Positions 8,343-64,000 are shown, counted from the stretch's first letter. The stretch: DNA of 64,000 nt from Candidatus Staskawiczbacteria bacterium RIFCSPHIGHO2_02_FULL_42_22 (GCA_001820175.1 MHOT01000012.1:124-64123); one strand, 5' to 3'. The notes: generated by a model not told the origin, from the sequence alone. A program made the numbers and translations.

Positions 8343-8532
8343 CCGCGGCCCTATGGACATCACATCCAGAAACCGCACTCCAAGTCTTGCCGGATTTGCC
8401 AATCTTGGGCAGTTTTCACAAAAAATTTGTTCGGCGTAGCTACGGCTAGGCCTTACAAATTTTTTGCTCCAAGCCGCCCAATATTGCGAAACCGTCGGCA
8501 ACTTTAGTGCGGTTTCTGGATGTGATGTCCAT
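8343..8532. repeat. family-B MITE-like element (27-bp TIR atggacatcacatccagaaaccgcact), copy 1
   Basis: Perfect terminal inverted repeats. The internal sequence is the reverse complement of copy 32318..32497. Flanked by TA on both sides. Confidence 0.7.
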
Positions 8533-8540
8533 AACAACCC

Positions 8541-8686
8541 TAGATTGCTTCGTCGTCACGCCTGCGGGCGCAACTCCTCGCAATGACGGGGGACACAGAA
8601 TTCGCGTCATTGCGAGGAGCCCGCAGGCGACGAAGCAATCTAACGGTGAACGGAGATTGCTTCGCTGCGGCTCGCAATGACGGATT
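8541..8686. repeat. GC-rich palindromic element (GTCATTGCGAGG...GAAGCAATCT...AGATTGCTTC...CCTCGCAATGAC family), tandem pair
   Basis: Nested inverted repeats read directly: cgtcattgcgaggagcccgcaggcgacgaagcaatctaacggtgaacggagattgcttcgctgcggctcgcaatgacgg. Confidence 0.7.
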
Positions 8687-13416: not shown

Positions 13417-13525
13417 TTACCACTCGTCATTGCGAGGGTTCGAAACCCGAAGCAATCTCCACCTCTCGTCATTGCGAGCCACGGCGAAGTAATCTTATAG
13501 CGATCCCTCACGCCTCGTCATTGCG
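13417..13525. repeat. GC-rich palindromic element, interrupted by IS insertion
   Basis: cgtcattgcgagggttcgaaacccgaagcaatctcc...cgtcattgcgg, then the IS. The remainder of the element (tcattgcgaggagtcctgagc...) resumes at 14597. Confidence 0.6.
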
Positions 13526-14596
13526 GGTATAAAGGTAGGTAACTTGTTGCTAATTTTTGAAGTAGATATACCACTTAAAGAAATCCTTTCGCCTGCCCTT
13601 TAACAATCCGCGATGTTGTCGGTAAATAATTTTTAATCTTGAAAAATATCCCTCGATCTTGTTCGTGGTTGAAGGAATATTTTTATCTTTTAAATAATGG
13701 AACATGCTCGGCAGAGCGTTTATCAATAAATTTCTGGTTGCTTTAAGATCGCTGAAAACTTTATCCTTTGAAGACAGGAGGTTCACCGATTTTCCGTATT
13801 TCCTTTCCCATTTTTGAAAAGTATTTAAGAATATTTTTTTACCTCTTTCATTTTTAATTTTTGTAACAGATAGCAATATATCTCTTAATTTCTTGCTGGC
13901 CTCCAGCTTTGGATTTCTTCTTAACCATGATAACCCCTGCCGTTGAATGTGTGCCAAACATCTTTGTATGATAATATCTGGCCAGACATCTTTAATGGCC
14001 CTCATTACGCTTGTATTGCCATCTACCGTGATAGCCATGGGCATAATGCCGCAGCTCTTTGACTCTTCAAAAATTGATCTTGCATATTCGTAATTTTCTC
14101 TGATACAATATTTATGATTTACGATTTTACCATTCGAATTGTCTATTAGCACCATTAGACAATTTTCATGTTTGAAATATGTCCCATCAAAAAGTAAATA
14201 TTTTATTTGATGGTAATTTAGAGTTTTTTTATCCGGCGCTTTGTTCATCCAAAAAGATAATATTTGTTTTATCTTCCAAATTCCACGACGGCTAATACTG
14301 ACTAATTGCCTTGCCGAATAACCCTCAACAATCCACAGCTCAAACCATTTTCTTTCGTTAAATTCCTTGTTCTTGCGATTATGAAAAGTGTAGGTGTGCT
14401 TACAAATTTTACATCTATACCTCTGGTAACCGCATGAAGTGCGACCAAATAATTTAACATTCAAAGAACCACACTTTAGACAACTTTTTTTTCATAATAT
14501 TGAACTGATTTGATATTATTCCAGATTTTAATTGTAATTTACTCTCAAATTAGCACGAAATCCGCATTTTTAGCAACAAGTTACCTACCTTTATAC
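13526..14596 (-). mobile_element. IS1595-family-like insertion sequence with 27-bp perfect TIRs and 8-bp target duplication
   Basis: TIR gtataaaggtaggtaacttgttgctaa at 13527-13553, with its reverse complement at 14570-14596. The direct repeat tcattgcg occurs at 13518-13525 and 14597-14604. There is a single transposase ORF. Confidence 0.7.
13550..14464 (-). CDS. transposase (N-terminal zinc ribbon plus DDE domain; IS1595-like)
   Basis: C..C...C..C near the N-terminus (CGYQRYRCKICKH). DDE-region motifs LFDGTYF, ITVDGNTSVMRAIKDVWPD and TNKIEGYFSRLK. Length 304 aa. Confidence 0.7.
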   Translation of the reverse strand: MNVKLFGRTSCGYQRYRCKICKHTYTFHNRKNKEFNERKWFELWIVEGYSARQLVSISRRGIWKIKQILSFWMNKAPDKKTLNYHQIKYLLFDGTYFKHENCLMVLIDNSNGKIVNHKYCIRENYEYARSIFEESKSCGIMPMAITVDGNTSVMRAIKDVWPDIIIQRCLAHIQRQGLSWLRRNPKLEASKKLRDILLSVTKIKNERGKKIFLNTFQKWERKYGKSVNLLSSKDKVFSDLKATRNLLINALPSMFHYLKDKNIPSTTNKIEGYFSRLKIIYRQHRGLLKGRRKDFFKWYIYFKN

Positions 14597-14690
14597 TCAT
14601 TGCGAGGAGTCCTGAGCCGCAGCGAAGGACGACGAAGCAATCTAACATTGAACGGAGATTGCTTCACTGCGGCTCGCAATGACGGCGTAA
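14597..14690. repeat. GC-rich palindromic element (right part of IS-disrupted copy plus hairpin)
   Basis: tcattgcgaggagtcctgagccgcagcgaaggacgacgaagcaatctaacattgaacggagattgcttcactgcggctcgcaatgacgg. Confidence 0.65.
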
Positions 14691-15245: not shown

Positions 15246-15253
15246 AATTAATA

Positions 15254-15410
15254 GACCTGTTGCGTATTAAGGATTTACTGCAAATTGCATATTTCGGCCA
15301 TAAATTTGCTATAATTTTTCGGCGGGCCCTCTAGGCAAGCCGAAAAATTCTATCAAATTTCTGGCTCAAAATCTTCAATTTTCGTAACAATCCTTAATAC
15401 GCAACAGGTC
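15254..15410. repeat. family-C MITE-like element (conserved core ttttcggcgggccctctaggcaagccgaaaaattctatcaaattt, self-complementary termini), copy 1
   Basis: Termini are gacctgttgcgtattaaggatt and aatccttaatacgcaacaggtc. TA on both flanks. Confidence 0.65.
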
Positions 15411-15451
15411 TAATTCTTTAAATGTAACCTCTTGCGCCTCTCCCATATATA

Positions 15452-15550
15452 CTCGTCGTCATTGCGAGCGAGCGGCCGCAGCCGCGAGCGCGGCAATCTC
15501 CTTTTTTTTACGGGGATTGCTTCGGGCCTGCGGGTCCTCGCAATGACGAG
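15452..15550. repeat. GC-rich palindromic element overlapping the 3' end of yidC
   Basis: cgtcgtcattgcgagcgagcggccgcagccgcgagcgcggcaatctcc...ggggattgcttcgggcctgcgggtcctcgcaatgacgag. The yidC stop codon (15508) lies inside the element. Confidence 0.65.
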
Positions 15551-16287
15551 ATAGGGGGAATTACTTTTATATTTTTTGATCTTTTGAGAATAAACCATTG
15601 CTGCGCCATGGAAAATAATCCGCTTACAATCCAATATAGTCCCAGCGCCGATGGTAATTTTATAAGAATAATCACGGTAATAATAGGAAAAAGATATACC
15701 ATTTGTTTTTGCATCATGGATGCAATATCAGGGCCACTTTTTGCCACCCCCTTAATTGTCTTGGGAAGCAGCATTTTTGTTTGAAAAAATTGTACGGCTC
15801 CCGCCAACACTGCAAATATCATATTAGGGTCGCCTAGGTTAATAAGCCCCAGAAACATTGTGTTAATCTGCACGGGGTTTACCACAAATTGATATAAATG
15901 AGAAAGCTCTTCTGGTTTTAATCCATTCCAAAATACCCGATACAGGGCGATAAGAATAGGGAGTTGTATCAAGGCCAAAAAAAGGCCTGAAAACGGGTTT
16001 ATCTTTTCCCTGCGGTATAATTCCAGGGTCTCTTTGGCTTGCTTTTCCTTATCGTCTTTATATTTTTTTTGCAGTTCCCGCAACTGCGGCTGCAATTTTT
16101 GCATAGCCGCCTGAGAGGCAACGGCTTTCACTGAAAGCGGATAGATAATAATCCGAATAATCACTGTAAGAATAATAATAGCGATGCCAAAATCGTGGCC
16201 AGGCACATAATTATAAATAATCACCAGGAAATTAAAGAGGGGAAAGTATAAAAAAAAATCGAAAAAATTTACAATAAATTGGAACAT
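15508..16287 (-). CDS. yidC: membrane protein insertase YidC (short form); last ~18 codons encoded by a GC-rich repeat
   Basis: Multi-TM Oxa1/YidC pattern with conserved loop PQLRELQKKYKDDKEKQAKETLELYRREKINPFSG. The C-terminus ...SLRGPAGPKQSP is read from the repeat. Confidence 0.8.
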   Translation of the reverse strand: MFQFIVNFFDFFLYFPLFNFLVIIYNYVPGHDFGIAIIILTVIIRIIIYPLSVKAVASQAAMQKLQPQLRELQKKYKDDKEKQAKETLELYRREKINPFSGLFLALIQLPILIALYRVFWNGLKPEELSHLYQFVVNPVQINTMFLGLINLGDPNMIFAVLAGAVQFFQTKMLLPKTIKGVAKSGPDIASMMQKQMVYLFPIITVIILIKLPSALGLYWIVSGLFSMAQQWFILKRSKNIKVIPPISSLRGPAGPKQSP

Positions 16288-16440
16288 TATTACTTAATTT
16301 CTAATTATTCTAATTATTCTAATTAACCTAATCAAATATCAATAACTAAAATACTTAAATCCTAAAACGGTTTAGAGATTAGGTATTCACTTATTGGATA
16401 TTGATTAGAATAATTAGGTTAATTAGAAATTAGAATAATT
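16288..16440. repeat. AT-rich inverted-repeat spacer (empty cassette-like) between yidC and rnpA
   Basis: ttctaattattctaattattctaattaacctaatcaaat is mirrored by attgattagaataattaggttaattagaaattagaataatt. Same sequence style as the arms of cassette 1. Confidence 0.55.
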
Positions 16441-16779
16441 TTATATTATTCCCATCTTTCTAAAAGAATCACTGACGGTTTTCTGTATCTCTAAAAACTC
16501 TCTTTTCTCGATTCCAGCCAAACTAATAACAATAACATCAAATGATCCGTTTAATTCCCCCAATAAACCCGCAACTGCGTCTCGTAATCTCCTTTTTACC
16601 CTATTGCGTACTACGGCTTTTGGTGAAACCTTCTTACTGACCACAAAACCAAAGCGACTGGAAGGTAAATTATTTTTCACAGCTTTTACCAGTAAAAAAT
16701 CCTGCTTGACGCCCTTTCCCCCAGTAAAAACCTTATCGAAATCCTTTTTTTTGGTAAGTCGGTTTATTTTTGGCAACAC
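16441..16779 (-). CDS. rnpA: ribonuclease P protein component
   Basis: 112-aa basic protein with the RNR motif (RNRVKRRLRDA). Sits between rpmH and yidC. Confidence 0.75.
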   Translation of the reverse strand: MLPKINRLTKKKDFDKVFTGGKGVKQDFLLVKAVKNNLPSSRFGFVVSKKVSPKAVVRNRVKRRLRDAVAGLLGELNGSFDVIVISLAGIEKREFLEIQKTVSDSFRKMGII

Positions 16780-16899
16780 TTCTGCAAATTATCAATTATC
16801 AATTTTCAATGACCAATTTTCAATAACGGCGTCAATTGATAATTAGATAATTTAGAAATTGATTGATACTTGATAATTGATAATTGATAATTTCCACAT
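16780..16899. repeat. AT-rich inverted-repeat spacer between rnpA and rpmH
   Basis: tatcaattatcaattttcaatgaccaattttcaat is mirrored by attgatacttgataattgataattgataatt. Same sequence style as the arms of cassette 3. Confidence 0.55.
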
Positions 16900-17034
16900 T
16901 TACACCGAAAGCTTCTTCCTTCCCTTAGCTCTTCTTCGCGCCAAAACCTGTTTGCCTTTCTTGGTTTGCTTGCGCACTAAAAAACCGTGGGTTTTTTTTC
17001 TTTTTTTCTTCTTGGGGTTATACGTAAAACTCAT
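16900..17034 (-). CDS. rpmH: 50S ribosomal protein L34
   Basis: Hand translation of the minus strand gives [44 protein letters not shown]. Missed by the ORF track (below the length cutoff). Confidence 0.85.
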
Positions 17035-17296
17035 AATTGTATAATTCTCTTAATTAATATAATATGGTTACTATAGTATAAAAAAATCCCCGAGTCAATT
17101 GTGTAATTGCGCGTTTAATTTATTGTGCGTCTACCTTAAAATGTATCACACATATTATCCCCATCTTATCAACAACCTAGGTTTATTCTATTTTAATTTG
17201 ACTCGCGGGTTCAGTATTTGATATTTATATTATATAGTTTCTAAAAAAATAACTGCGTAATTTTGCGTTAATTTCCGCGTTTTTGCGCGACCATGT
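17035..17296. promoter_or_regulatory. dnaA upstream region with candidate DnaA boxes (oriC candidate)
   Basis: TTATCCCCA and TTATCAACA (17171-17193) each differ from TTATCCACA by one base. Divergent rpmH/dnaA arrangement. Confidence 0.45.
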
Positions 17297-18655
17297 ATGG
17301 ACCACAACGAACTCTGGCAACAAGTGCTGGCACAAATGCAATTTCATATTTCCAAGGCAAATTTTGCCACGTGGTTTCAAAATACCGAAATTATTTTAAG
17401 AGAAGATGAAAAGATGGTCATTTCCGTACCCAATGCTTTTTCTAAAGAATGGCTGAAGAACAAATATTATAAACTTATTCTCAAAACTATCCATACTACA
17501 GATAATTCTATAAAAGAATTGGAGTTTGTTATTAAACCTCAGTTATTAAAAAAAATTGACCAGAAAGAGGATACTAAAAAACCAGAAATAGAAACCGGGC
17601 AATTAAAATTTGAAGAGTTTAAGGTAAACAAAGAAACTAATTTAAATCCGCGCTACACCTTTGAAAATTTTGTCGTCGGATCATTTAATGAGCTGGCGTA
17701 TTCGGCCAGCTTGGCGATTTCAGAAAATGTCGGGACTGTGTACAACCCCTTATTTATTTATGGCGGCGTCGGTTTGGGAAAAACCCATTTAATACAGGCC
17801 ATTGGAAATAAAATACATGACAGCCCCAAAAAAAAGAAGGTAAAGTATATTTCCTGTGAAAAATTTGTTTCGAGCATTGTGTCGGGAATACGAAACCATA
17901 ATATTGATATTTTTAAAGCAAGTTTGTCTTTAATTGACGTATTAATTATTGACGACATCCAGTTTTTGGCAGGAAAAGATAAAACCCAGGAAGAATTCTT
18001 CCACACTTTTAATTCTCTATACGAAAAAAATAAACAAATCATTCTTTCTTCTGATCGGCCGCCCAACGCCATTCCTGAACTAGAAGAACGCCTGCGATCG
18101 CGTTTTGAAGGCGGAATGATCACCGACATTAGTCTACCGGATTATGAAACACGGCTTGCTATTTTAAAAACAAAGCTTCAAGAAAAAAATCTAAAACTAC
18201 CCGAAGATGTATTAGAATACGTCGCTTCTAACGTAAAAAAGAATATCAGGGAATTAGAAGGGGCCCTTAATAGTTTATTAATATATTATAAAACCAACAC
18301 CTCAATTCCTAACCTTGAAACAACTAAAAGATTATTGAAAAATTTTGTATTTTCTCCCTTTAATGTGGCAAATTACAAAAAAATCATTGAAATTGTTTCT
18401 AAATTTTATAATTTAGATGAAAAAACGATTTTTAACCCGACCCGCCGCAAAGAAATTGTTAGGCCCCGGCAAATTGCCATGTTTTTATTAAGAGAAGAAT
18501 TAAAATACTCCTTCCCGGCCATTGCCCGTAAATTTGGCGGAAAAGACCACACCACCGTGATTTACGCCCATAAAAAAATACTCCAAGAATGCCAACAAAA
18601 TAATAAACTCACTGAAGAATTAAATATGATAAAACAAAAAGTATATAGTGGTTAA
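17297..18655 (+). CDS. dnaA: chromosomal replication initiator DnaA
   Basis: AAA+ Walker A GGVGLGKTHLIQAIGN, Walker B LIIDDIQFL, sensor motifs, C-terminal DNA-binding domain. Confidence 0.9.
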   Translation: MDHNELWQQVLAQMQFHISKANFATWFQNTEIILREDEKMVISVPNAFSKEWLKNKYYKLILKTIHTTDNSIKELEFVIKPQLLKKIDQKEDTKKPEIETGQLKFEEFKVNKETNLNPRYTFENFVVGSFNELAYSASLAISENVGTVYNPLFIYGGVGLGKTHLIQAIGNKIHDSPKKKKVKYISCEKFVSSIVSGIRNHNIDIFKASLSLIDVLIIDDIQFLAGKDKTQEEFFHTFNSLYEKNKQIILSSDRPPNAIPELEERLRSRFEGGMITDISLPDYETRLAILKTKLQEKNLKLPEDVLEYVASNVKKNIRELEGALNSLLIYYKTNTSIPNLETTKRLLKNFVFSPFNVANYKKIIEIVSKFYNLDEKTIFNPTRRKEIVRPRQIAMFLLREELKYSFPAIARKFGGKDHTTVIYAHKKILQECQQNNKLTEELNMIKQKVYSG

Positions 18656-18689
18656 GCAACCCCTCACGCCCCACATAACCCCTCACGCC

Positions 18690-18975
18690 CCCACCGTCAT
18701 TGCGAGGCACACTGAAGCAATCCCCGTACAAAACGACGAGATTGCCACGTCGCTTGCGAGCTCCTTGCAATGAAGACACTGGGTCACTGATCCTATTTTA
18801 CACTTTTTGATTAGGGGGTGTGAGGGGTTACCGCCTCACCACCATCACTACCGTCATTGCGAGGAATCCGCAGATTCCGTGGCAATCCCTCAATAATACG
18901 ACTAGATTGTCCCGATGGTGGAGCCATCGAGGATCCTCGATAGAATCGGGACTGCGGGCCCTCGTAATAACAGTA
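18690..18975. repeat. cluster of GC-rich palindromic elements (3 units)
   Basis: ccgtcattgcgaggcacactgaagcaatcc..., cgtcattgcgaggaatccgcagattccgtggcaatcc... and attgtcccgatggtggagccatcgaggatcctcgat...atcgggact. Confidence 0.65.
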
Positions 18976-19235
18976 CGGGGGATGATGTGGTTAAAATTAA
19001 AATAAGATAGTGGAATACCTGTGTAAAAGTACGGTAGTAAACTGAACACCATTGATGTATAAAAAATACTATAAAAATTCACCCACCTTATCACCAAATG
19101 ATTTCCAATTATTTATCAACAAGTTATTATAAAAAAAGATAAAGATAAATTACCCTATAAAATTATTAAAAATACATTAAAATTACCTTCACCAACAACA
19201 ATAATAATATTTTATTAACTATTAATTACGACATT
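18976..19235. promoter_or_regulatory. AT-rich dnaA-dnaN intergenic region with DnaA-box-like 9-mers (oriC/DUE candidate)
   Basis: TTATCACCA and TTATCAACA at ~19087-19120, followed by ~120 bp of >85% AT immediately upstream of dnaN. Confidence 0.4.
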
Positions 19236-20363
19236 ATGAAAATAGAAGTGTTGAAAGAAAATTTAAAATCAGGCCTTATTATTAGTGAAAGAATTGTGGG
19301 TAAAAACATATCCCTCCCTATTTTACATAATGTGTTAATAACCACAGAGAATAATTTTTTAAGTTTAATTTCTACTGATTTAGAAGTAACTATTAAATTA
19401 TGGATGCTGGTGAAAATTATTAACAAAGGAAGTGTGGTGGTGCCGGCAAAATTCCTTTCTAGTTTTATTACCTCTTTACCTAATGAGAAAATAACTATGG
19501 AGCAAAGGGATCAGTCCTTGTATATTGAGTGTGGAAATGTGAAGACAAAAATCCAAGGACATAACTTAGAGGATTTTCCTATTATCCCTGAGTTTAAAAA
19601 TACTGAAACACTGGAGGTTGATAGCCAGGCATTATATGGGGCAATTTCACAGGTGGTTGATATTGCTTCCCAGAACCAAGGCCGACCGGAAATTTCTGGT
19701 GTCTATTTTTCTTTTCTGAAAAATTCCATTAAAGTAGTGGCCACTGATAGTTTTCGTTTAGCAGAAAAAAATATTCACCTATCAGAGCCCATTAAAAAAG
19801 AGCATAGTTTTATTTTGCCCCAAAAGTCGGCCCGAGAAATTATGAATATTTTAGAGGGAAGGGGAGGGGCGGTGATCATATATTTTTCACCAAATCAAGT
19901 ACTTTTTGAAGTATTAATGAAAGAGGTTGGGCATCCGGAAGTCCAAGTTACTTCCCGTCTTATTGATGGGGAGTACCCTAATTACCAAGATATCATACCC
20001 AGTAAATTTAAGACCCATATTACGGTATCAAAAGACCAATTTTTAAACCAAATAAAAACCGCGTCATTATTTTCAGGTAAGGTTAATGAAGTGAGAATTT
20101 CCCTTAGTACCGAAAAACAAGACCTTGAAATATCTTCAAAGAGCCAAGATGTTGGCGAACACACCTCATTATTAAAAGCAAAAATAGAAGGGGAGGCGAT
20201 ACAGATATCTTTTAATTATAAATTTTTAATGGATGCTCTTTTGCACATGAAAAGTTCAGAGGTAATTTTAGAAATAAGCAAAGAAGATGGACCCTGTCTT
20301 CTGCGACCCCTGGGAGACGATAGTTATATTTGTGTAGTGATGCCGATTAAATCGCTTCAATAG
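19236..20363 (+). CDS. dnaN: DNA polymerase III beta sliding clamp
   Basis: 375 aa. Three-domain clamp pattern with the dnaA-dnaN gene order. Confidence 0.85.
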   Translation: MKIEVLKENLKSGLIISERIVGKNISLPILHNVLITTENNFLSLISTDLEVTIKLWMLVKIINKGSVVVPAKFLSSFITSLPNEKITMEQRDQSLYIECGNVKTKIQGHNLEDFPIIPEFKNTETLEVDSQALYGAISQVVDIASQNQGRPEISGVYFSFLKNSIKVVATDSFRLAEKNIHLSEPIKKEHSFILPQKSAREIMNILEGRGGAVIIYFSPNQVLFEVLMKEVGHPEVQVTSRLIDGEYPNYQDIIPSKFKTHITVSKDQFLNQIKTASLFSGKVNEVRISLSTEKQDLEISSKSQDVGEHTSLLKAKIEGEAIQISFNYKFLMDALLHMKSSEVILEISKEDGPCLLRPLGDDSYICVVMPIKSLQ

Positions 20364-20373
20364 TAACCGTAAT

Positions 20374-20406
20374 AAAAAATCCCAAAAGTTTCTTGGGATT
20401 TTTTAT
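20374..20406 (+). terminator. rho-independent terminator after dnaN
   Basis: aaaaaatcccaaaagtttcttgggatttttt hairpin followed by a T-run. Confidence 0.6.
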
Positions 20407-20469
20407 TGTGGTTAATTTACTTTCTATGAATTATGAAATACCCTCCACTTCGTAACCCCTCACGCTCCT

Positions 20470-20617
20470 ACATACACCCACCGTCATTGCGAGGAGCGCG
20501 CACGCGACGCGGCAATCTCCACCACCAAACGACGACGGAGATTGCCATGGCTGGCCAGACGCGAGGCGTAATTTGTCGCAACAAATTCGCCCCGTCTCCG
20601 GCCTCGCAATGACGGGA
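20470..20617. repeat. GC-rich palindromic elements (2 units)
   Basis: ccaccgtcattgcgaggagcgcgcacgcgacgcggcaatctcc...ggagattgcc...gcctcgcaatgacggg. Confidence 0.65.
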
Positions 20618-20645
20618 AAAATATTATTTCGTAATTCAAAGTAAC

Positions 20646-22889
20646 TTACCCTGAAGTATCAGTGGTGTCGCCAATCCAATTTTGGACTGCCGCCTCCCAA
20701 AATGGATACTGGGGATCGTTGTTGGGATTTGGATAAGAAGTATCAAGAGGATTATCTTTATTAATGTAATGCAAAATACTATGGGGTGGTTCTTGTTCTG
20801 GAAATTGACCCAATAAAATAGGGTTTTTACTTTGTGGCGGCTCGGGCTTGGTAAAACTCTGTTTGGGGTGCAAAGCGAGCATTTTTTGCATCACCTTGCG
20901 CCAGATAGGAGCCGCCAAACCAATACCCTGGCTGGTGGTTGAAGAATTATCATTATTTCCCACCCAAACGCCAATTGAGGCAAAGGGCGTGTACCCCATC
21001 GTCCATCCATCGTTTTGGTATTGGGTGGTGCCGGTTTTAGCTGCCACCTGGTAGTCCTTAAAATATAAAGCGTTGTTGACGCCAAATACAGGGGCTCTAG
21101 CGTTATTATCCGACAGAATATCGTTTATTTGCCGGGCCACCTCTGTATCTAAAACTTTAGTAAGTTGGGGGGTATTTTGTTGAATAATATTCCCCTTACT
21201 ATCCTCGATTTTTAAGATACTTATCGGCGGTACTCGCTTACCCTCCGTAGCAAATACGCCATAAGCCGAAGTCATATCCAAAAGAGTTACTTCACCTCCA
21301 CCCAACACTAACGATAGTCCATATGCATCAGGATCGTGCAGGGTGGTGATACCCATATCATGGGCGGTTTTTAAGCTATCAATAACCCCTGTTAGGTATA
21401 ATAATTGAACTGATGTGATATTGAGTGATTGGGCTAAAGAAGATCGCATTGAAACCTGGCCACGCCAACTGCCATCGTAATCCTGAGGGTGGTAACAGGC
21501 CAAGCTGTATTGATCTTTGGTCTGACTGCCATCGGCGCTGCAGTTTGGGTTAAATTCGGTTTTTACGTCCCATAACATGGTGTTTGGGGTATAACCCTCT
21601 TTTAACGCAGTGGCATACACAAAGGGTTTAAATGAGGATCCTGGTTGGCGTTGGCCCATAGTGGCTACGTCGTACTGGGGGTCAAATAAACACCTGCTGG
21701 CGGCCTTTTGGTCGCATCCTTCAGGATATGATTTTCCAAAATAATTCTTTGATCCAATGAGTGATAAAATTTCTCCCGTATACGGGTCAATTACCACCAA
21801 CGCAGCATTATTAGCACGGGATTTTATATTAATTTTATCCGCCTCTTTTACCACTTCCTCGGCGTAATTGTGCAGTTCCCAATCAAGGGTGGTGTAGACC
21901 TTAAGCCCCTTTTCTTTTAAAAATTCATCTCCGTAGGTCTCTTCTAGATATTGGTTAACATACATAACAAAATGGGGCGCTTTTATAGGTGTGGTGGTTT
22001 GGGAAAAATTAAGCAGTTCTTTTTTTGCGTCCTCAAGTTGCCCTTGGTTAATATAGCCAATGTCTTTCATTCGCTGTAGGATATAATCCTTTTTTTGCAA
22101 GAGCAAGTCCTTATGGGAGCCATAGGGAGAGTAGTAGCTTGGGGCGGGGATTAAAGCGGTTAATGTGGCCGCCTGGGCTAAGCTCAAATTATCTGCTGAT
22201 GTGTTAAAATATGTCTGGGCAGCCGCTTCGGCTCCATAGGCATTTTTACCAAAAGGAATTTTATTTAAATACCAGTCAAAAATTTGATCCTTAGAGTACC
22301 TTCGTTCTATTTCTATACTCAACACAATTTCCCTGATTTTTCTTTCTAGGGTTTTTTGTTGGCTTAAATATACTGATCGTATGAGTTGTTGGGTTATTGT
22401 TGAAGTCCCCTTAAATGCATTTTTGGGATTTAAAATATTTACCAGCACCGACCGTATAATTGACCTGAAATCCACTCCATAGTGATTGTAAAATCGCGCA
22501 TCTTCTGAAGCCAATACAGCATGTTTTAAGTTATTGGAAATATTATCAAAAGGGATAATTTCTCTTTTTTCTTCGCCATAAATGTCGTATAAAAGCACCT
22601 TTCCGGTTCGGTCGTATATTTTAGTTGATTGGATAAAAGGGGTTTCGGTAAATTTTTCCGGACGCGGTAAATCATAGGTGTAGTAAAAAAATAAACCCAA
22701 GATAAAAATACAAAATGCTAAAAATAAAAATGCAAGGTATTTTACGGCCAGCACTATTATGAGCCGGTTTTTTTTGGTTCTTTTTTTTATAATGCGAAAG
22801 CAAAATTTAGTAAATTTTTTAGAGGTACTAATGCAGCTTTTCAATATTTTTTTTATACCCTTTTTCGTAACATATTTTCTAATGGTCAT
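20646..22889 (-). CDS. class A penicillin-binding protein (transglycosylase + transpeptidase)
   Basis: Glycosyltransferase motif EDARFYNHYGVD, transpeptidase motif SSFKP, N-terminal TM anchor. Confidence 0.85.
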   Translation of the reverse strand: MTIRKYVTKKGIKKILKSCISTSKKFTKFCFRIIKKRTKKNRLIIVLAVKYLAFLFLAFCIFILGLFFYYTYDLPRPEKFTETPFIQSTKIYDRTGKVLLYDIYGEEKREIIPFDNISNNLKHAVLASEDARFYNHYGVDFRSIIRSVLVNILNPKNAFKGTSTITQQLIRSVYLSQQKTLERKIREIVLSIEIERRYSKDQIFDWYLNKIPFGKNAYGAEAAAQTYFNTSADNLSLAQAATLTALIPAPSYYSPYGSHKDLLLQKKDYILQRMKDIGYINQGQLEDAKKELLNFSQTTTPIKAPHFVMYVNQYLEETYGDEFLKEKGLKVYTTLDWELHNYAEEVVKEADKINIKSRANNAALVVIDPYTGEILSLIGSKNYFGKSYPEGCDQKAASRCLFDPQYDVATMGQRQPGSSFKPFVYATALKEGYTPNTMLWDVKTEFNPNCSADGSQTKDQYSLACYHPQDYDGSWRGQVSMRSSLAQSLNITSVQLLYLTGVIDSLKTAHDMGITTLHDPDAYGLSLVLGGGEVTLLDMTSAYGVFATEGKRVPPISILKIEDSKGNIIQQNTPQLTKVLDTEVARQINDILSDNNARAPVFGVNNALYFKDYQVAAKTGTTQYQNDGWTMGYTPFASIGVWVGNNDNSSTTSQGIGLAAPIWRKVMQKMLALHPKQSFTKPEPPQSKNPILLGQFPEQEPPHSILHYINKDNPLDTSYPNPNNDPQYPFWEAAVQNWIGDTTDTSG

Positions 22890-22924
22890 AATAGTTACAT
22901 TAAGACACTAATTTTTATAAAAAT

Positions 22925-23215
22925 CAAGCAATCTGTGGGTAACCTCTCACACCCCCAATGTCATTCCCGACGCGCACGATCGGGAATCCAGGGTATCTTG
23001 TTTAGACCTCTTGCAAAATAAGGATTAGCTGAAAATTCCATATTTTGGCTGAAAATTTGCAATAATTTTTCGGCGGGCCTATGGGCAAGCCGAAAAATTC
23101 TATCAAATTTTCATCTAAAAATCTGTAATTTTCGCTCTAATCCTTATTTTACAAGAGGTCTTTTGAAAATCTTCTGGATCTCGCTTCAAAAGCCCGGGAT
23201 GACAACGAGAGGCGT
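22925..23215. repeat. GC-rich element split by a nested family-C element
   Basis: gtcattcccgacgcgcacgatcgggaatccaggg | family-C copy (gacctcttgcaaaataaggatt...aatccttattttacaagaggtc) | aaaatcttctggatctcgcttcaaaagcccgggatgacaacgagaggcg. An uninterrupted version is at 38574..38665. Confidence 0.7.
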
Positions 23216-23237
23216 AATGGGTTGCATTTGTGAATTC

Positions 23238-23262
23238 AAAAACCCCGGTTACCGGGGTTTTT
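23238..23262. terminator. bidirectional hairpin terminator
   Basis: aaaaaccccggttaccggggttttt. Confidence 0.55.
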
Positions 23263-23282
23263 AAGTACTAACAAATACCGTA

Positions 23283-23474
23283 CTACTCTTCTTCGTCAAC
23301 CACACTATCTTCTTGGTCATCATTAAGTTCTTCATCTACTTTGTCTTTATCGTCACCGTCTTTATCGTCACCGTCTTTATCGTCGCTGTTTACATCTTCT
23401 TCTTCATCTTCATCGTCAATCACATCGTCTTCATCAGCTTGACTTAAGACGTTTAATAAAAAATCATCATCCAT
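23283..23474 (-). CDS. small acidic low-complexity protein (doubtful)
   Basis: 63 aa, D/E rich, with a 15-bp tandem repeat (DKDGD)x3. Could be non-coding. Confidence 0.2.
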   Translation of the reverse strand: MDDDFLLNVLSQADEDDVIDDEDEEEDVNSDDKDGDDKDGDDKDKVDEELNDDQEDSVVDEEE

Positions 23475-23758
23475 TTTCTTAAATTATTCTAATTATTCTA
23501 ATTGCTCTAATTATTCTAAATAATTTCTAATGTCTAAATTTTTAACATTATAATTTAGGATCTGATTAGGTCAATTAGTATAATTAGGTTAATTAAACTA
23601 ATTTATTTTATCTACTTTCCCTATTATATTTTTTCATCTATCATTGTCAAGGGCCTCTATCCACAGCCCCTTAGAAATTGTCCCATAAGTCGCTTTTGAG
23701 GGCAATATTCTCTTTTTCGGCTACAAATATGGACTTATGAGACAGTTTCTTGGAATAG

Positions 23759-24271
23759 TCACGCCGTTAAAAATGCGCATAGCGCTACCCCTAAGGCATC
23801 GGAAGCATCGTCTTTTTTTCTGTCTTTTTCCTCAATATCAAAACTACTTAAGTCCAATAATTGGCGAGTCATTTCTTGAACCTGTTTTTTTTCTGCCCTG
23901 CCGTATCCTACCACCGTCATTTTAACCTGTAGCGGGGTAAATTCAATAACGGGGACATTTTTTTTGGCGGCAGATAACAGGATAACTCCCTTTGCTTGAC
24001 TTACCGGCATGGCGGTTTTCAGGTTTTTGAAGAAAAAAAGATTTTCAATCGAAATGACATCGGGGGTATGTTTTTTAATAAGGGCATTAACTTCTTGGTG
24101 GATAATATAAAGTCGCTTGCCGGGAGAGTGGAGGGTAGTGGTAGTGATGCATCCAAAATCGACCACTTTTGGTTTTTCATTTTTGTCTTGTTTTTGATGT
24201 TTTGGTTTTGTAGTCGAGATAATCCCATATCCTACCAAAGCCAATCCCGGATCTATTCCCAAGATAATCAT
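23759..24271 (-). CDS. ruvC: crossover junction endodeoxyribonuclease RuvC
   Basis: MIILGIDPGLALVGYGII N-terminus, catalytic acidic residues, C-terminal DDASDALGVALC. Confidence 0.85.
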   Translation of the reverse strand: MIILGIDPGLALVGYGIISTTKPKHQKQDKNEKPKVVDFGCITTTTLHSPGKRLYIIHQEVNALIKKHTPDVISIENLFFFKNLKTAMPVSQAKGVILLSAAKKNVPVIEFTPLQVKMTVVGYGRAEKKQVQEMTRQLLDLSSFDIEEKDRKKDDASDALGVALCAFLTA

Positions 24272-24395
24272 GAAAATTTGAAATTTGAAATTTTCAATTT
24301 GAAATCAATATTAAATGTCTAAATGATTAAATTTGAAAACACGGCATCGTTTTTTAATCATTTCAAATTCACTTTTTTCAAATTGATTTCAAATT

Positions 24396-25121
24396 TCAAA
24401 TTGTAAATTTCAAATTCGAGTAAATATCCTGCACCGCATCGTTTTCGTCTAGTGCCTCAAACAGTTTTTTGGCTTTTTCCCGATCTTTTTGGTCTATGGT
24501 GATTTCTTCTTTGGCAATCCACGATAAAGAGTTTGAATTCATTTTTAATCCTTTTTCTTCTAATGCTTTTTTAATAACCTCTAATTCTTCCGGTTTAGTA
24601 TAAACTAATATAGTATCTCCTTGCCAAAGCACATCGTCTGCCCCCACTTCTATGGCCAATAATTCTAATTCGTCTTTCGATTTTCCTTCCATAATCACCT
24701 CAATATATCCCTTTCTTTCAAACATCCAACGCACCGCTCCCTCTCCTGCCATTTTACCGCCATATTGACTTAAAATTCCTTTAATATCACCCAGGGTACG
24801 GTTTTTATTATCTGTAATTCCCTCCACAATCAAAGAAATTCCACCGGGGCCAAATCCCTCAAATGACACTTCTTCTAAGGCCTCACCTGCTAATTCCCCA
24901 GTACCTTTTTTAATCGCCCGTTCAATATTTTCTTTGGGCATATTAAATTCCCTGGCCTTTTCTATAGCGGCTTTTAACTGGATGTTGCTACTTATATCAG
25001 GCCCTTTTTCTTTTGCAGCAATGGTAATAACTCTTCCTATTTTGGAAAAGATTTTACCCCTTTTGGCATCGTTGGCGTTTTTAGTAGCCGCGACGGTTTT
25101 GAAATGAGAATGACCTGACAT
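24396..25121 (-). CDS. yebC: YebC/PmpR family DNA-binding regulator
   Basis: MSGHSHFKTVAATKNANDAKRGKIFSK signature. Confidence 0.85.
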   Translation of the reverse strand: MSGHSHFKTVAATKNANDAKRGKIFSKIGRVITIAAKEKGPDISSNIQLKAAIEKAREFNMPKENIERAIKKGTGELAGEALEEVSFEGFGPGGISLIVEGITDNKNRTLGDIKGILSQYGGKMAGEGAVRWMFERKGYIEVIMEGKSKDELELLAIEVGADDVLWQGDTILVYTKPEELEVIKKALEEKGLKMNSNSLSWIAKEEITIDQKDREKAKKLFEALDENDAVQDIYSNLKFTI

Positions 25122-26275
25122 TACTTTTTTAACATTTTAAACTTTAATAACAATATAGTGGTTGCGCAAACTAAGGTGATTGCCAAAGCGATGATAAATA
25201 GCCACATGGGATGCGAGGTGGCGTTTTTAGATTTACTTAGCGCTGATCCATATGTATCAGTTTTTTTTATTTTTGACAAGGCGGCAGTTTGATTATTAAG
25301 GTCATAGGCCTCTCCGTCGGGCATTGAAATGTTATTGGTTTTACCCGGGGTCGGGGTAGCGCTCCATTGCCAGTCCAAGGGAGTTTTGTTATATGACTGA
25401 TCGGTAACTGTTTTAGTGTATTCCATAGTGTCTACAACAGTTCCACTGGGCGAAAGGAGACGGAGCCCATCCACATCGTTGTTAAGGGTAATTTTTGTAA
25501 CAGGTCTTTTAAGGACTACATATCCATGGGCTGCCATAAAGGTATTTTTCGGAATAGTGTAAGTAGTAGAGGCGCCGCCGGTATCTTGTAATTTCCAGCC
25601 GGAAATAGCAACTGAAACATCATTGGTATTGTAAAGCTCAATCCACTCATCCGTTTGATCGGCGGTCTTGGGATTTGGCAATACCTCATTGATAATAATG
25701 CCGGAAATTACTTTTGGGGTTGGGGCGGTGACAGCCACCGCTACGCCAAAACTATTTTGTTTCCCCGGAGTTCCGCCGGCTTTTTGACTGGTATACCAGG
25801 TTCCGTTGATTTTTTCCATGGTTTGGTGTGTCGCGGCGTTACCGGCCGGCCATGTTGAGGAAAAATTCACTTGATCAATTGAGTTGTTTTCAGAATCGTA
25901 GAGTTGTAAATGCCCTCCAGTATTGTTTAGTACCCCTTTATATATTGCGCCGGCTTCAATTTCTGGTACGGAATTATTATCGGTTCGTTCCAGTAAATAA
26001 AGCCCTTGGGGGCCAATGATTCCCGCCAGGCCGATGTTTATATTTCCATCAACTGATTGCAGTGTCCACCCGGAAAGATTAATGCTTTCATTGGTGGTAT
26101 TTTTTAACTCTATCCATTCATCACTGGCGGAAGCCGCCGACCCCATCCAGGCGATTTCATTAATAACTACATTGCTTTGATTATCCATTGCCCCGTAAAC
26201 TTCAATGGCAAAATGGGTAGCTATTAACATTAAAGAAATGGTGAAAACTTTTTTCATTGCCACTATTATACCCAT
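25121..26275 (-). CDS. secreted protein with two lamin-tail-domain (LTD) repeats and C-terminal TM anchor
   Basis: VVINEIAWMGS...SDEWIELKN and IIINEVLPNPKTADQTDEWIELYN repeats; C-terminal hydrophobic helix. Confidence 0.4.
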   Translation of the reverse strand: MGIIVAMKKVFTISLMLIATHFAIEVYGAMDNQSNVVINEIAWMGSAASASDEWIELKNTTNESINLSGWTLQSVDGNINIGLAGIIGPQGLYLLERTDNNSVPEIEAGAIYKGVLNNTGGHLQLYDSENNSIDQVNFSSTWPAGNAATHQTMEKINGTWYTSQKAGGTPGKQNSFGVAVAVTAPTPKVISGIIINEVLPNPKTADQTDEWIELYNTNDVSVAISGWKLQDTGGASTTYTIPKNTFMAAHGYVVLKRPVTKITLNNDVDGLRLLSPSGTVVDTMEYTKTVTDQSYNKTPLDWQWSATPTPGKTNNISMPDGEAYDLNNQTAALSKIKKTDTYGSALSKSKNATSHPMWLFIIALAITLVCATTILLLKFKMLKK

Positions 26276-26321
26276 TTAAAGAACCAAAATCTACATTTTG
26301 ATTTTTTAAAATAATTATGGT

Positions 26322-26807
26322 ATGCTTTTTTTAGTACAAAAACCCAAGGAGGCAATCGTGAAAAAGTTCATTTTAGTCGTGCGTGGACAATTGTATTCCG
26401 ACGGACAGTTTGATGAATTTGTTTTTTGGAAAATCAAATCAGTCATCGAAAAATTAAGGTTTGCTATTAACGATGGTTCGGTATTGGTTCTTACCTCATT
26501 TGCCCCGGATGATTTACAAAGCGCTGGAATCATAGCAAATTATTTGTGTGCCAAATTTCAGGGATGCGAAATTCCAAATTCCTCACACGACGATGTAGGG
26601 CGCAAAAAATTTATCGAACTGGTCGATTCTTACAGCTCTGCGGCCGATGTTATCATTGTGGTCATGTCGCCCGAAAAAATCGAGGATTTCTTGCCAGAAT
26701 TTCTTCTGCAAAGATTCGATGGTATGTGGATGCGGCCGCATGCGCTTCAGGTTGATGAAGCGTATATTGTTCACTTTGATACAAAAAGAGTGGAACATGT
26801 TCGCTGA
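26322..26807 (+). CDS. hypothetical protein
   Basis: 161-aa ORF, no confident motif. Confidence 0.3.
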   Translation: MLFLVQKPKEAIVKKFILVVRGQLYSDGQFDEFVFWKIKSVIEKLRFAINDGSVLVLTSFAPDDLQSAGIIANYLCAKFQGCEIPNSSHDDVGRKKFIELVDSYSSAADVIIVVMSPEKIEDFLPEFLLQRFDGMWMRPHALQVDEAYIVHFDTKRVEHVR

Positions 26808-26855
26808 ACCATCGCCAACCCCGCCACTTGCTAAGGCAGTAACGGGGGTCTTTTT

Positions 26856-27869
26856 TTATACGAGAGGTTGAACGGTTTTCTTAGGTTTTAACCCTAAATG
26901 TTCGTAAGCTAGTTTTGAGGCCATTCGGCCCTTAGGAGTTCGCTCAAGAAATCCGCATTGCATTAAATATGGCTCATACATATCTAAAATAGTATCCTCT
27001 TCTTCAAGGGCCGCCGCTGCCAATGATTGTAACCCCACAGGCCCGCCATCAAATTTTTCAATGAGGGCCAGTAAAATTTTTATATCTCCGGGTTCCAGAC
27101 CCATGTGGTCAACTTCCAGGGAATTTAAAGCGTGTTCGGTAATTTCTTTAGTCACAATACCCTCATTTTTTACCTGCGCAAAATCCCGCACCCGTTTCAA
27201 TAAGCGGTTGGCAACCCGGGGAGTAAAACGAGACCGGCGCGCAATAATTTCAATGGCTTCGGGGTGGATATCAACTTTCAAAAGCCGTGCGGACCTGGCA
27301 ATAATTTTTTCAATATCTTCGGGTTTGTAAAAATTCAACTGGAAGGTGCCGCCAAATCTGTTTCTTAACGGGGCTGACAGTAATCCAGGACGGGTGGTAG
27401 CCCCAATAATGGTAAAGTGGGGCAGTTTTAATTCCATAGTGCGGGCCATGGGGCCTTTGCCTAAAATTAAATTTAGCTTATAATCTTCCATGGCCGGATA
27501 AATGTATTCTTCAATGGTTTTATGCATCCTATGGATTTCGTCCAAAAAAAGCACATCACCTTCTTGTAAATTAGTCAAAATGGCCGCCAAGTCACCCGCC
27601 CGTTCAATGGCCGGCCCCGATGTAATCCGTATTTTTTTACCCATTTCCAATGCTACCAGTTGCGCCAGGGTGGTTTTTCCCAATCCGGAATTTCCATACA
27701 ACAATAAATGGTCGGGGGATTGACCTCGTTGCTTGGCTGCGGTTATAATCACCTGTATGTTTTCCTTGATGTTCTCCTGGCCTACGTAATCGTCCCAGGT
27801 TTTGGGGCGCAGGGAGGAGTCCAATACTTCATCCTCCGGATTAGGTTTTTTGTCGAGAATGCTTGACAT
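26856..27869 (-). CDS. ruvB: Holliday junction branch migration ATPase RuvB
   Basis: Walker [17 protein letters not shown], Walker [11 protein letters not shown], sensor/arginine finger, winged-helix C-terminus. Confidence 0.9.
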
Positions 27870-27994
27870 ATATATTGCAAGGTGATATAATTAAGATATT
27901 GTGTGATTTTCATCAAATTGCGCACCTTAATCGTACTATAAACTACCAACATATCAAAGAGACGAAAAATAATCCCTTGCACTTTACCACCATC

Positions 27995-28306
27995 ACTACC
28001 GTCATTGCGAGGAGTCCCGATCGCAATCGTGGACGACGAAGCAATCTCGTCATTTTGTATGGAGATTAGACCTGTCCCTAAATAAGGTTTCGTACGAAAA
28101 TAACAGATTTTGAGCTAGAAATTTGATAGAATTTTTCGGCTTGCCCTCTGGGCCCGCCGAAAAATTATAGCAAATTTGTGGCCAAAAGGTGTTATTTGCA
28201 GTAAAACCTTATTTAGGGACAGGTCTATTACTTCGTCGTTGTGACTCCTCGCAATGACGGGGTGGCCAGATTGCTTCGGGCCTGCTGGCCCTTGCAATGA
28301 CAAAGT
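27995..28306. repeat. GC-rich element with a nested family-C element (copy 3, TA-flanked)
   Basis: ccgtcattgcgaggagtcccgatcgcaatcgtggacgacgaagcaatctcgtcattttgtatggagat-TA-[gacctgtccctaaataaggttt...aaaccttatttagggacaggtc]-TA-ttacttcgtcgttgtgactcctcgcaatgacgg. Confidence 0.65.
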
Positions 28307-29061: not shown

Positions 29062-29162
29062 TTTTTTATTACTTCCTTATTTTATTCAGAAGTAATTTTA
29101 AAGATTTATTGATACTTGAAAATTGATAATTGGAAATTCCACTCCGCCCGCGGGCGGGGTGG

Positions 29163-32254: not shown

Positions 32255-32317
32255 TGTTTTATCTATAAGTGTAGTACATTTCATGGGCATTGTTGGAGGG
32301 AGTCAATCATGAGCACT

Positions 32318-32497
32318 ATGGACATCACATCCAGAAACCGCACTTAAGTTGCCGACGGTTTGGCAATCTTGGGCGGCTTGGAGCAAAAAATTTGTGAGGC
32401 CTAGCCGTAGCTACGCCGAACAAATTTTTTGTGAAAACTGCCCAAGATTGGCAAACCCGTCAAGACTTGGAGTGCGGTTTCTGGATGTGATGTCCAT
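32318..32497. repeat. family-B MITE-like element, copy 2 (opposite internal orientation to copy 1)
   Basis: atggacatcacatccagaaaccgcact...agtgcggtttctggatgtgatgtccat; TA flanks. Confidence 0.7.
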
Positions 32498-32698
32498 ATG
32501 TATGACAAGGGTATGGGAAATTTTTTAGGAAATGCAAGAATGCAGAAAGGAGATTCCGTAGAAGATGTGAGAGTAAGATCTGGTTATTCTAGTAGGATAA
32601 CCATAAGTGGGATTGAAGCAGGAAAATATGGAATTTCCGCAAAAAATATAAAAAGAATTGTTGCTGCGTACCGACTAACGCCCGCTGAATTGCAGTAA
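32498..32698 (+). CDS. small XRE-type helix-turn-helix protein (tentative)
   Basis: ITISGIEAGKYGISAKNIKRIVAAYRLTPAEL resembles an HTH_XRE helix-turn-helix. The start codon lies at the edge of the family-B repeat. Confidence 0.3.
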   Translation: MYDKGMGNFLGNARMQKGDSVEDVRVRSGYSSRITISGIEAGKYGISAKNIKRIVAAYRLTPAELQ

Positions 32699-38346: not shown

Positions 38347-38424
38347 AATTTTTTAAGTTAATTAAAACTCTATCAGATAATCTCGATTTTTGCAACTTTT
38401 TGGTAATTGAGCTTGGTGAATAAT

Positions 38425-40226: not shown

Positions 40227-40301
40227 CGAGGGGTTAGTCAAATGCTTGACATTATTTTATAAAATGTTATAATGGGATAATTAAGTTAATTATAAAATTT
40301 T

Positions 40302-63921: not shown

Positions 63922-64000
63922 TGTCATTGCGAGCGGCGGCCAGTGGGCCGCCGCGTGGCAATCTCGTCCAATAACAGACCTGTCCCTAAATAAGATTTTA
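63922..64000. repeat. GC-rich element followed by start of another family-C element
   Basis: gtcattgcgagcggcggccagtgggccgccgcgtggcaatctcg, then gacctgtccctaaataag (same terminus as the copy at 28062). Confidence 0.5.

Follow-up and report, generated by a model that had tools for sequence, protein, structure and literature searches.

How does a short mobile DNA element keep its two ends complementary when the sequence of these ends differs between copies? This question is raised by a repeat family in a stretch of 64,000 nucleotides from Candidatus Staskawiczbacteria bacterium RIFCSPHIGHO2_02_FULL_42_22 (GCA_001820175.1, MHOT01000012.1:124-64123), a member of the Candidate Phyla Radiation (CPR; Parcubacteria) from the Rifle aquifer. 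The whole of this stretch is called the window here. A preliminary description had reported repeats with a conserved core and self-complementary termini, and had attributed the matching of the termini either to selection on an RNA structure or to a copy mechanism in which one end serves as template for the other. It is shown here that the repeats constitute a transposable element of the miniature inverted-repeat kind (MITE), with terminal inverted repeats (TIRs), a 3-bp target duplication, many intergenic sites, nested insertions and mobile composite copies.

Copies, insertion sites and target duplication

The window contains three complete copies and a fourth that is cut by the window end (nhmmer E-values 1e-44 to 1e-48), and the repeat family first recognized by eye is thus real. 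The copies were placed by means of a profile built from full-length copies, together with BLAST and repeat comparison, and their boundaries were taken from the TIR tips, AGACCT...AGGTCT. Each complete copy measures 158-159 bp, starts with AGACCT and ends with AGGTCT. The copies announced earlier are all present, with boundaries corrected to 15253-15411, 23004-23161 and 28068-28226, and the fourth starts at 63976 instead of 63964.

All window copies are intergenic. Copy 1 (15253..15411, plus strand, 159 bp, nhmmer 1.4e-48) is situated in the spacer that separates yidC from jag (R3H), and 7 bp lie between its left end and the jag ATG; it has arms of type A (AGACCTGTTGCGTATTAAGGATT), perfect 23-bp TIRs and a target duplication AAT (15250..15252 and 15412-15414). 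Copy 2 (23004..23161, plus strand, 158 bp, arm type C, AGACCTCTTGCAAAATAAGGATT) lies upstream of the gene for a class A penicillin-binding protein, between two TTT triplets (23001-23003 and 23162-23164). Copy 3 (28068..28226, minus strand and thus opposite to copies 1 and 2, 159 bp, arm type B, AGACCTGTCCCTAAATAAGGTTT) is found upstream of ruvB and is flanked by ATT as read on the plus strand (28065-28067 and 28227-28229). The perfect terminal repeats described for the family hold for copies 1 and 3, while copy 2 has one mismatch between its arms (left ...CTTGCAAAAT, right ...ATTTTACAAG). Copy 4 (63976..64000, plus strand, arm type B), of which the window holds the first 25 nt, is situated between an amino-acid kinase gene and argS; its full length of 158 bp, with an AAC duplication, can be read in a contig from the same population (L056 10762-10919). 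What had been read as a TA flank combines one base from each triplet, T from the left and A from the right, the duplications in the window being AAT, TTT, ATT and AAC.

Insertion into other repeats is frequent, and copies 2, 3 and 4 sit within GC-rich hairpin repeats. Copy 3 occupies the loop of such a repeat (CGTCATTGCGAGGAG...GACGAAGCAATCT...GAGATT; left half 27999..28067, right half 28230-28260) and breaks it between GAGATT and ACTTCG, exactly after ATT; the canonical form, GAGATTGCTTC, can be read at 14661-14672. Copy 2 splits another GC-rich unit (left half 22937..23003, right half 23165-23236), an uninterrupted relative of which is present at 38562-38682. The nesting seen at the outset therefore stands for both copies, except that 38562-38682 is not a clean empty site for copy 2, as it carries 10 extra bases (tatcttgttt) at the junction.

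Beyond the window, the core pattern matches 34 stretches in metagenome contigs of Rifle samples, and an nhmmer catalogue of 55 full-length instances reduces to 33 distinct sites when these are distinguished by their flanks. All 33 sites are intergenic, 17 of them between tandem, five between convergent and five between divergent genes, against a background of 174, 26 and 27. The elements are 143-186 bp long, with composites of up to 319 bp, and they are non-coding and without a transposase gene. At 28 of the 33 sites the 3-bp flanks are identical on both sides, which corresponds to a direct target duplication, mostly of the form A-N-T (AAT 13 times, ATT eight times, AGT three times, and ACT, TTT and TAT once each); sites without matching flanks are occupied by recombinant or chimeric copies. 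As TTT, TAT and AAC occur among the triplets, all three bases must be duplicated, and a 1-bp duplication next to element ends beginning with T and ending with A is ruled out. A duplication of TA was rejected too, since the base preceding the left 'TA' equals the base following the right 'TA', which a 2-bp duplication cannot explain.

The composite copies, 233-319 bp in length, contain a second small palindromic element within the left box of the core and have matching AAT or ATT flanks in six of seven cases. They mostly retain matching duplications and have therefore moved as composites. They are located at L015 5692-5925, L022 4968-5200 and 1728-1996, L035 4965-5241 and 7112-7386, L004 4481-4799 and L027 2809-3084. 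The inserted element (TATAATGTGTCGCTCG...CGCTTAGCACATTATA, about 73 bp or longer) entered at the TATA of the left box and restores TATAAT at an unchanged distance from the hairpin, and the composites subsequently spread to several sites. A 43-bp deletion derivative, at the other extreme, retains the tips and an AAT duplication.

The mobility of the family, which had been concluded from nesting, is thus borne out by 33 intergenic sites, 28 matching duplications, nested insertions, composites with duplications of their own and the absence of the element from the yidC-jag spacer of three related species, whose spacers are not alignable to that of the window. The same spacer contains unrelated palindromic repeats in two of these relatives (L064 10733-10833 and L067 10715-10818) and is only 17 bp long in the third (L066 10745-10761); it seems to be repeatedly colonised by different hairpin elements. 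When 185,579 representative genomes were scanned with the core pattern, nothing but a chance match was obtained, in a GC-rich coding region of Herbaspirillum, and no match to the element was found in viral contigs, plasmids and phages.

A fixed short duplication indicates the staggered cuts of a DDE transposase and excludes HUH/tyrosine systems (IS200/IS605, RAYT) as well as a TA-duplicating enzyme of the IS630 type. Judged from the duplication alone, a DDE-type transposase making 3-bp staggered cuts would move the element in trans. On the same ground, the TA-duplicating (IS630/Tc1-mariner, Correia-like), REPIN/HUH and IS6 classes were rejected. REPINs, known from Pseudomonas and other bacteria, are short palindromic mobile DNAs in which the ends are conserved, the spacer varies and compensatory changes on the two sides of the hairpin are common (PMC3116915), and the foldback shape, compensatory changes and nesting in other palindromes of the family described here resemble them. 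It is nevertheless hardly credible that a hairpin-recognising tyrosine (HUH) transposase moves the element as single-stranded DNA in the manner of REPINs or IS200/IS605: REPINs are tied to RAYT tyrosine transposases, and such systems leave no target duplication, whereas an exact 3-bp duplication is the rule here; no RAYT or TnpA-like gene was seen among the window proteins scanned.

Arm types and a common inner module

The TIRs are 23 bp long with an invariant tip (left AGACCTGT, right ACAGGTCT). They are perfect at 21 of the 33 sites and have at most three mismatches in every non-chimeric copy. The idea that each copy has termini of its own does not survive the larger catalogue, in which the termini are subfamily-specific and fall into a few types, named here by the left arm: type A (AGACCTGTTGCGTATTAAGGATT) at about 12 sites, type B (AGACCTGTCCCTAAATAAGATTT) at about 16, type C (AGACCTCTTGCAAAATAAGGATT) at about four, the rarer type E (AGACCAACTTAACCAATTACTTCC), with an ATT duplication, and type G (AGACCTGTTGCGAAATAAGAATC) from another species. 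Positions 1-8, 11, 14, 16-18 and 22 of the TIR are invariant or nearly so, while positions 9, 10, 12, 13, 15 and 19-21 vary by arm type, always on both arms.

Three joined copies depart from this regularity. One has arms of types A and B with flanks ATT and AAT (L033 10286-10447); a second, with types C and B and flanks TTT and AGT, combines the left part of window copy 2 with the right part of the L018 copy (L054 1229-1386); the third is a same-type join with flanks AAT and AGT (L012 3542-3700). Since their flanks do not match, these copies are recombination products or assembly chimeras and not products of transposition. Several metagenome contigs end at the element (L049, L050 and L052) or switch partner inside it (L054 1229-1386).

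Between the arms lies an inner module (profile positions 33-125) of the form ATTTTGGC..AAATTyGCTATAAT - T5 - hairpin - A5 - TTCTATCAAATTT..GCTCAAAAT. Its core consists of a box TGCTATAAT, T5, a hairpin that is variable in sequence and always paired, A5 and a box ATTCTATCA. In copy 1, the left box TGCTATAAT (15307..15315, plus strand) matches the extended -10 consensus and reads inward to the hairpin; the hairpin occupies 15315..15347 (T5-CGGCGGGCC-loop-GGCAAGCCG-A5, with an internal GG/AA mismatch), and the right box (15347..15355, minus strand) reads ATTCTATCA on the plus strand and TGATAGAAT on the minus strand. The preliminary description was right that a core is shared, but the 48-nt sequence it quoted is exact in copy 1 only; copies 2 and 3 vary in the hairpin loop, which is TATG and CAGAG, respectively, as compared with CTCTA in copy 1.

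The same inner module is present within unrelated arms (CTGTGAATTACGAAACCCC; type D, CyGTGAATTACGAAAyCCC) that are bordered by 7-8-bp duplications (CTTGTAG, CTTGAAG, CTCAAGAG), and also inside arms of types E, F (GAAACCGTCTAATAAGTC) and G. One copy with type A arms (L004 4860-5018) has a type-F-like interior, and a 59-bp hairpin, 'D-short', is found without the module. When the syntenic origin regions of relatives were fetched through YidC homologues (73-76% identical), GCA_001820255.1 proved to contain an F-armed copy and a G-armed one, the latter with an AAT duplication, and D-armed copies were present in GCA_001820255.1 and GCA_964599285.1, all at non-orthologous sites. The module is thus seen in two other Staskawiczbacteria species. 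In GCA_001820255.1, moreover, a 220-aa open reading frame (ORF) resembling HNH/NUMOD3 homing endonucleases (L066 1412-2440; ORF 1584-2246) is situated between yebC and ruvC, flanked by a type-F-armed element on one side and a type-G-armed element on the other; it is missing from the yebC-ruvC spacer of the window.

At least 14 different stem sequences occur between the same two boxes, those of the two other species included, and all of them are paired. A purine-purine internal loop recurs at the same place in several stems (GG/AA in four stem contexts, AG/GA and GG/GA). The left/right asymmetry of the boxes (GCTATAAT versus the reverse complement GATAGAAT) is kept in all arm types and in three species. 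The GG/AA loop and the C.T and T.C mismatches of the TGCTATAAT box against the TGATAGAAT box persist in every subfamily and from species to species. Accordingly, the boxes are under constraint for sequence and the stem for pairing, and the arms can be exchanged for one another. As an inner module, the core is older and exchangeable, and it is common to several MITE backbones and species.

The near-identity of the core across arm types A, B, C and D would most readily be accounted for by recombination or gene conversion between copies across the conserved boxes, a reading consistent with the recombinant copies that are seen. Each arm type might instead have arisen separately, without arm switching, from its own autonomous insertion sequence through loss of internal DNA, all these insertion sequences being of one family and already having the boxes and half-hairpins at their ends. 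Related insertion sequences with differing TIRs and cognate transposases are common, as in the families of ISfinder, and the arm types do correlate with interior variants (...AAATTGCAT... for type A, ...AAATTCCAT... for type B). We consider such independent origins improbable. The same module with the same asymmetry also occupies arms with 7-8-bp duplications, which implies a different transposition chemistry; arm types that differ at seven of 23 TIR positions have almost the same core; and no parent insertion sequence was found in the window and loci scanned.

The boxes match the extended -10 consensus, and the stem begins 4-7 nt beyond them on both strands. This arrangement suggests, from motif and spacing, two convergent promoters with a 5'-terminal hairpin. 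The motif TGNTAKAAT occurs 16 times against 6.4 expected, but five of the 16 are the elements themselves; a sigma-70 scan called no -35/-10 pair in the core, and the context and orientation of the sites are unbiased. None of these results lends independent support to the promoter idea. That the core would be an exchangeable cargo cassette of about 95 bp and no mere transposon remnant, in which two convergent extended -10 promoters (TGCTATAAT and TGATAGAAT) surround a shared hairpin whose sequence is free and whose pairing and purine-purine internal loop are kept, is accordingly put forward as a doubtful proposal. An intrinsic (bidirectional) terminator was rejected: on either strand T5 comes first, followed by the stem and A5, so that the U-run precedes the stem, and a terminator scan was silent on the core. 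The region upstream of the tmRNA gene was discarded as a related site as well, since the 12 nt that it has in common with the right box are smpB coding sequence. Elsewhere, TTGCCCGCCGAAAAATTATTAGAAT at 59215-59245 agrees in 17 bases with half of the core hairpin plus its A-run; it is located about 12 nt upstream of the ATG of an ORF (59257-59763) and could be either a half-element remnant or a product of chance.

Matched ends and a paired interior

The arms are held together far more strictly than drift would allow. TIR columns deviate from the subfamily consensus in 2.9% of cases against 8.1% in the interior, and in the 28 non-chimeric copies there are 13 arm mismatches where about 103 are expected under interior-like drift. 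The co-variation of the arms noted in the window is thus real and far above the controls, and the termini have not drifted apart as neutral sequences would.

Pairing is not confined to the arms. Over their full length the copies are about 81-82% identical to their own reverse complement (BLAST), that is, they are quasi-palindromes, and the element can fold as a hairpin of about 65 pairs. Copy 1 folded as DNA (-50.9 kcal/mol, z = -14) and copy 3 folded as RNA (-80 kcal/mol, z = -13) each give a single end-to-end hairpin. RNAalifold applied to 31 copies predicts one hairpin with 61 pairs, in 28 of which both sides have changed. Paired cells amount to 95.6% against 88.1% after shuffling, a value reached by none of 500 shuffles, and the 28 covarying pairs compare with 12.4 in shuffles and with 4-6 when the partners are slid by 1-3 columns; covariation is present in all four helices.

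When change events were counted once each along a minimum spanning tree of the copies, the paired columns showed 54 single changes, as compared with 39 compensated doubles, and the 41 unpaired columns showed 71 changes. Compensated pairs are found even between copies that are only 4-6 differences apart, such as the T-A to G-C change in the T5/A5 helix of L024, among six differences, or those between L007 and L030; window copy 3 has its own compensated T-A to A-T change. About 23 of the 39 compensated doubles, a count in which the differences between B and C arms enter on two edges, are transversion flips (CG to GC, AT to TA) that do not pass through a wobble intermediate. Mismatches of the G.U type and of the A.C type are about equally frequent. 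This pairing pattern is unlike stepwise compensation in a strand-specific RNA and fits a DNA-level symmetry requirement or templated change.

Could the element nevertheless be a structured RNA in the first place (a small RNA, or an mRNA hairpin that acts in cis), with covariation resulting from RNA folding and mobility being secondary? Covariation is strong over the whole hairpin, the central stem varies in sequence while remaining paired and has a recurrent purine-purine internal loop, boxes resembling extended -10 elements stand 4-7 nt from the stem on both strands, and all copies lie within or between transcription units. Against these points, neither strand is favoured by the mismatch types, transversion flips dominate and convergent sites are not avoided; the orientation relative to the flanking genes in tandem contexts (five same, 12 opposite) is not significant. 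At the gathering threshold of Rfam 15 the tmRNA alone was found in the window, and a permissive scan of copy 1 gave far sub-threshold matches only, of the microRNA-precursor-like kind that a generic long hairpin attracts. The target duplications, finally, show that the copies arose as DNA insertions. Selection at the RNA level, the first of the two causes originally proposed, has therefore no specific support and is not favoured, and we hold the RNA reading as a whole to be very unlikely.

The two causes first proposed were incomplete, since the default explanation for matched termini was omitted. Both ends of a DDE transposon are recognised by the same transposase, so that only lineages with matched ends multiply. 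The arms of the present element would match mainly for this reason: one transposase must fit both ends, and matched-end lineages would be those that leave copies. Along the interior of the hairpin, a pairing-preserving process operates in addition, as the covariation shows; it may be either selection for foldback during transposition or correction of the quasi-palindrome by template switching.

The other early proposal, that one end templates the other, can be extended to the element as a whole. The complementarity of the arms and the interior would then be due mainly to physical copying of one arm into the other, through replication template switching within the quasi-palindrome or through mismatch correction in a foldback intermediate, and compensatory changes would need no selection. 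This mechanism would explain why copies such as L024, and likewise window copy 3, differ from near-identical ones by a compensated transversion pair, why double transversions without a viable single-step intermediate are so prominent among the compensated events and why changes come in blocks; template switching is an established route by which mutation makes imperfect inverted repeats perfect (PMC7202029, PMC6357072). Unchecked templating, on the other hand, would erase the conserved C.T and T.C mismatches between the boxes and the GG/AA loop, and as these mismatches are conserved, selection is needed for some of the pattern at least. The distance between the arms, moreover, is about 115 nt and exceeds that in the classic quasi-palindrome cases, and no in-situ change is seen at any orthologous site. 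As the main cause of complementarity, arm copying is possible and, in our estimation, rather unlikely.

Taken together, an account in which a MITE is moved in trans, with its ends matched by the transposase, its parts reassorted by recombination and its interior maintained by a pairing-preserving process, is probably correct. Several observations weigh against it. End-matching by a transposase does not on its own explain the covariation of the interior helices, and it leaves the conserved, asymmetric boxes and the conservation of the GG/AA mismatch unaccounted for. There is no clean presence/absence polymorphism among the population contigs, every one of which, including those of a strain with flanks 98.4% identical to those of the window, has the four window copies in fixed and identical form. 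The related species are too diverged for a base-exact empty site, the metagenome loci are not established as all coming from one genome, and some of the 'recombinant' copies could be assembly chimeras (L054 is from a MEGAHIT contig). About 0.6 Mb, comprising the window and the loci, yielded neither an autonomous element bearing these TIRs nor a candidate transposase. This parent search covered degenerate TIR pairs 0.1-4 kb apart and AGACC/GGTCT pairs that match at 16 or more of 22 bases; in the window and in loci L001-L055, no transposase was enclosed by TIRs spaced 0.5-3 kb, and multi-copy ORF families among 225 ORFs yielded no autonomous parent. One candidate, L004 4860-6865, was rejected because it consists of a full copy and a 43-bp mini derivative around an ORF that does not encode a transposase. 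The sole transposase in a Pfam scan of 20 window proteins is of the Mutator/IS256-like type (13550-14464), and the ends of its element are unrelated to those of the family.

Relatives, neighbouring repeats and significance

Comparable MITEs are the Correia elements of Neisseria (CREE/NEMIS), which measure about 100-160 bp, have TIRs of about 26 bp, form a whole-element hairpin, are intergenic and are often co-transcribed. Correia elements have been reported with promoter-like boxes and a host-factor site near the centre. They duplicate TA, in contrast to the 3 bp, mostly A-N-T, duplicated by the Staskawiczbacteria family, there is no sequence similarity between the two, and the occurrence of several arm types around one inner module also sets the present family apart. 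The TIR core CTGTTGC(A/G) resembles what we take to be an IS26-type end (GGCACTGTTGCAAA), a likeness to be treated as a lead only; the IS6 family duplicates 8 bp as opposed to 3 bp, and no IS6 transposase was seen. A further parallel is bcr1 of the Bacillus cereus group, a non-autonomous mobile repeat of about 155 bp that is flanked by short direct repeats and transcribed, and in which compensatory changes keep a double-stranded structure (PMC3184786). It differs in its 5-bp direct repeats, its sequence and its host, and no exchange of inner modules between backbones is described for it in the text consulted. The Tourist-like MITEs of the PIF/Harbinger group are TIR-bounded miniature elements with a 3-bp AT-rich target duplication (PMC2213677). 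The duplication length of the Staskawiczbacteria family fits this IS5/PIF-Harbinger type, whereas Tourist-like MITEs are eukaryotic, or belong to the IS5 family in bacteria, and no IS5-type transposase was found. In behaviour, the family is thus closest to Correia elements, bcr1 and Tourist-like MITEs, and in shape and compensatory change it resembles REPINs. It is an ordinary kind of element whose anatomy is unusually clear and modular, and its unusual feature is the structure-constrained core that is common to backbones with different duplication lengths.

In this region of the genome, rpmH-rnpA-yidC-jag adjoin dnaA-dnaN (window DnaA, OGZ69331.1), followed by the gene for the class A penicillin-binding protein, ruvC, yebC and ruvB. 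Four copies are present in 74 kb of the host genome, some of them adjoining core genes (yidC/jag, ruvB, the penicillin-binding protein gene and argS). The jag gene next to copy 1 is not truncated, its product having 166 aa compared with 161-185 aa in orthologous Jag proteins.

Other repeats and mobile elements occur in the same region. Just downstream of jag, a small insertion sequence (13507-14616) lies in GC-rich repeat DNA; inverted repeats of about 27 bp (TATAAAGGTAGGTAACTTGTTGCTAA) delimit it, and it contains a 304-aa ORF on the minus strand (13550-14464) with weak Transposase_mut/MULE/IS66 matches. A separate family of 182-nt repeats (8352-8533, 32317-32498 and 56497-56678, plus a 30-nt end at 49046-49075) has its own terminal inverted repeats (TATGGACATCACATCCAGAAACCGCAC), with copies that are 92-97% identical and lie in either orientation; it is probably another MITE. 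One of its copies is found just upstream of a short MFS ORF (214 aa, 56731-57375).

GC-rich hairpin repeats (CGTCATTGCGAGGAG...GACGAAGCAATCT and relatives) are abundant and fill the intergenic DNA of this genome of 39% GC; examples are found at 8595-8682, 14597-14684, 15454-15562, 18681-18985, 27999-28064, 38420-38523, 39947-40232 and 55080-55171. One of them overlaps the 3' end of yidC (15504-15551). YidC has 259 aa here versus 236-247 aa in homologues, which cover 91-95% of the window protein, and the repeat may have extended the yidC ORF. A 91-nt repeat (49142-49232 and 57390-57480, 92% identical), built around GTCATTCCCGCGAAAGCGGGAATCC hairpins, constitutes a further GC-rich type, like the unit split by copy 2. 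In addition, AT-rich repeats rich in TTGATAATTGATAATT (5334-5391, 5751-5802, 16835-16892 and 29097-29139) occupy several intergenic regions, including that upstream of dnaA, and might relate to the replication origin or to promoters.

The mobile DNA of CPR bacteria is almost undescribed, and a full-text literature search returned one unrelated paper and no description of MITEs in this group. On the practical side, the element family breaks or mis-joins metagenome assemblies of its host population and can create false gene extensions. More generally, it provides a clean natural data set on how the two ends of a non-autonomous transposon stay matched, and it bears on the shares of selection and of templated mutation in the 'compensation' that is observed in palindromes.

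Finally, the family bears on whether miniature elements carry functional cargo, a promoter plus a hairpin, from one backbone to another. If the cassette proposed above were real, each promoter would start transcription at the foot of the shared hairpin, and the cassette would be carried by at least two mechanistically different MITE backbones, with 3-bp and with 7-8-bp duplications, in several Staskawiczbacteria species. Insertions would thereby receive a promoter that points outward and has a stabilising hairpin at its 5' terminus, and this would make them tolerable or even useful within the tightly packed co-directional gene arrays of these reduced genomes.

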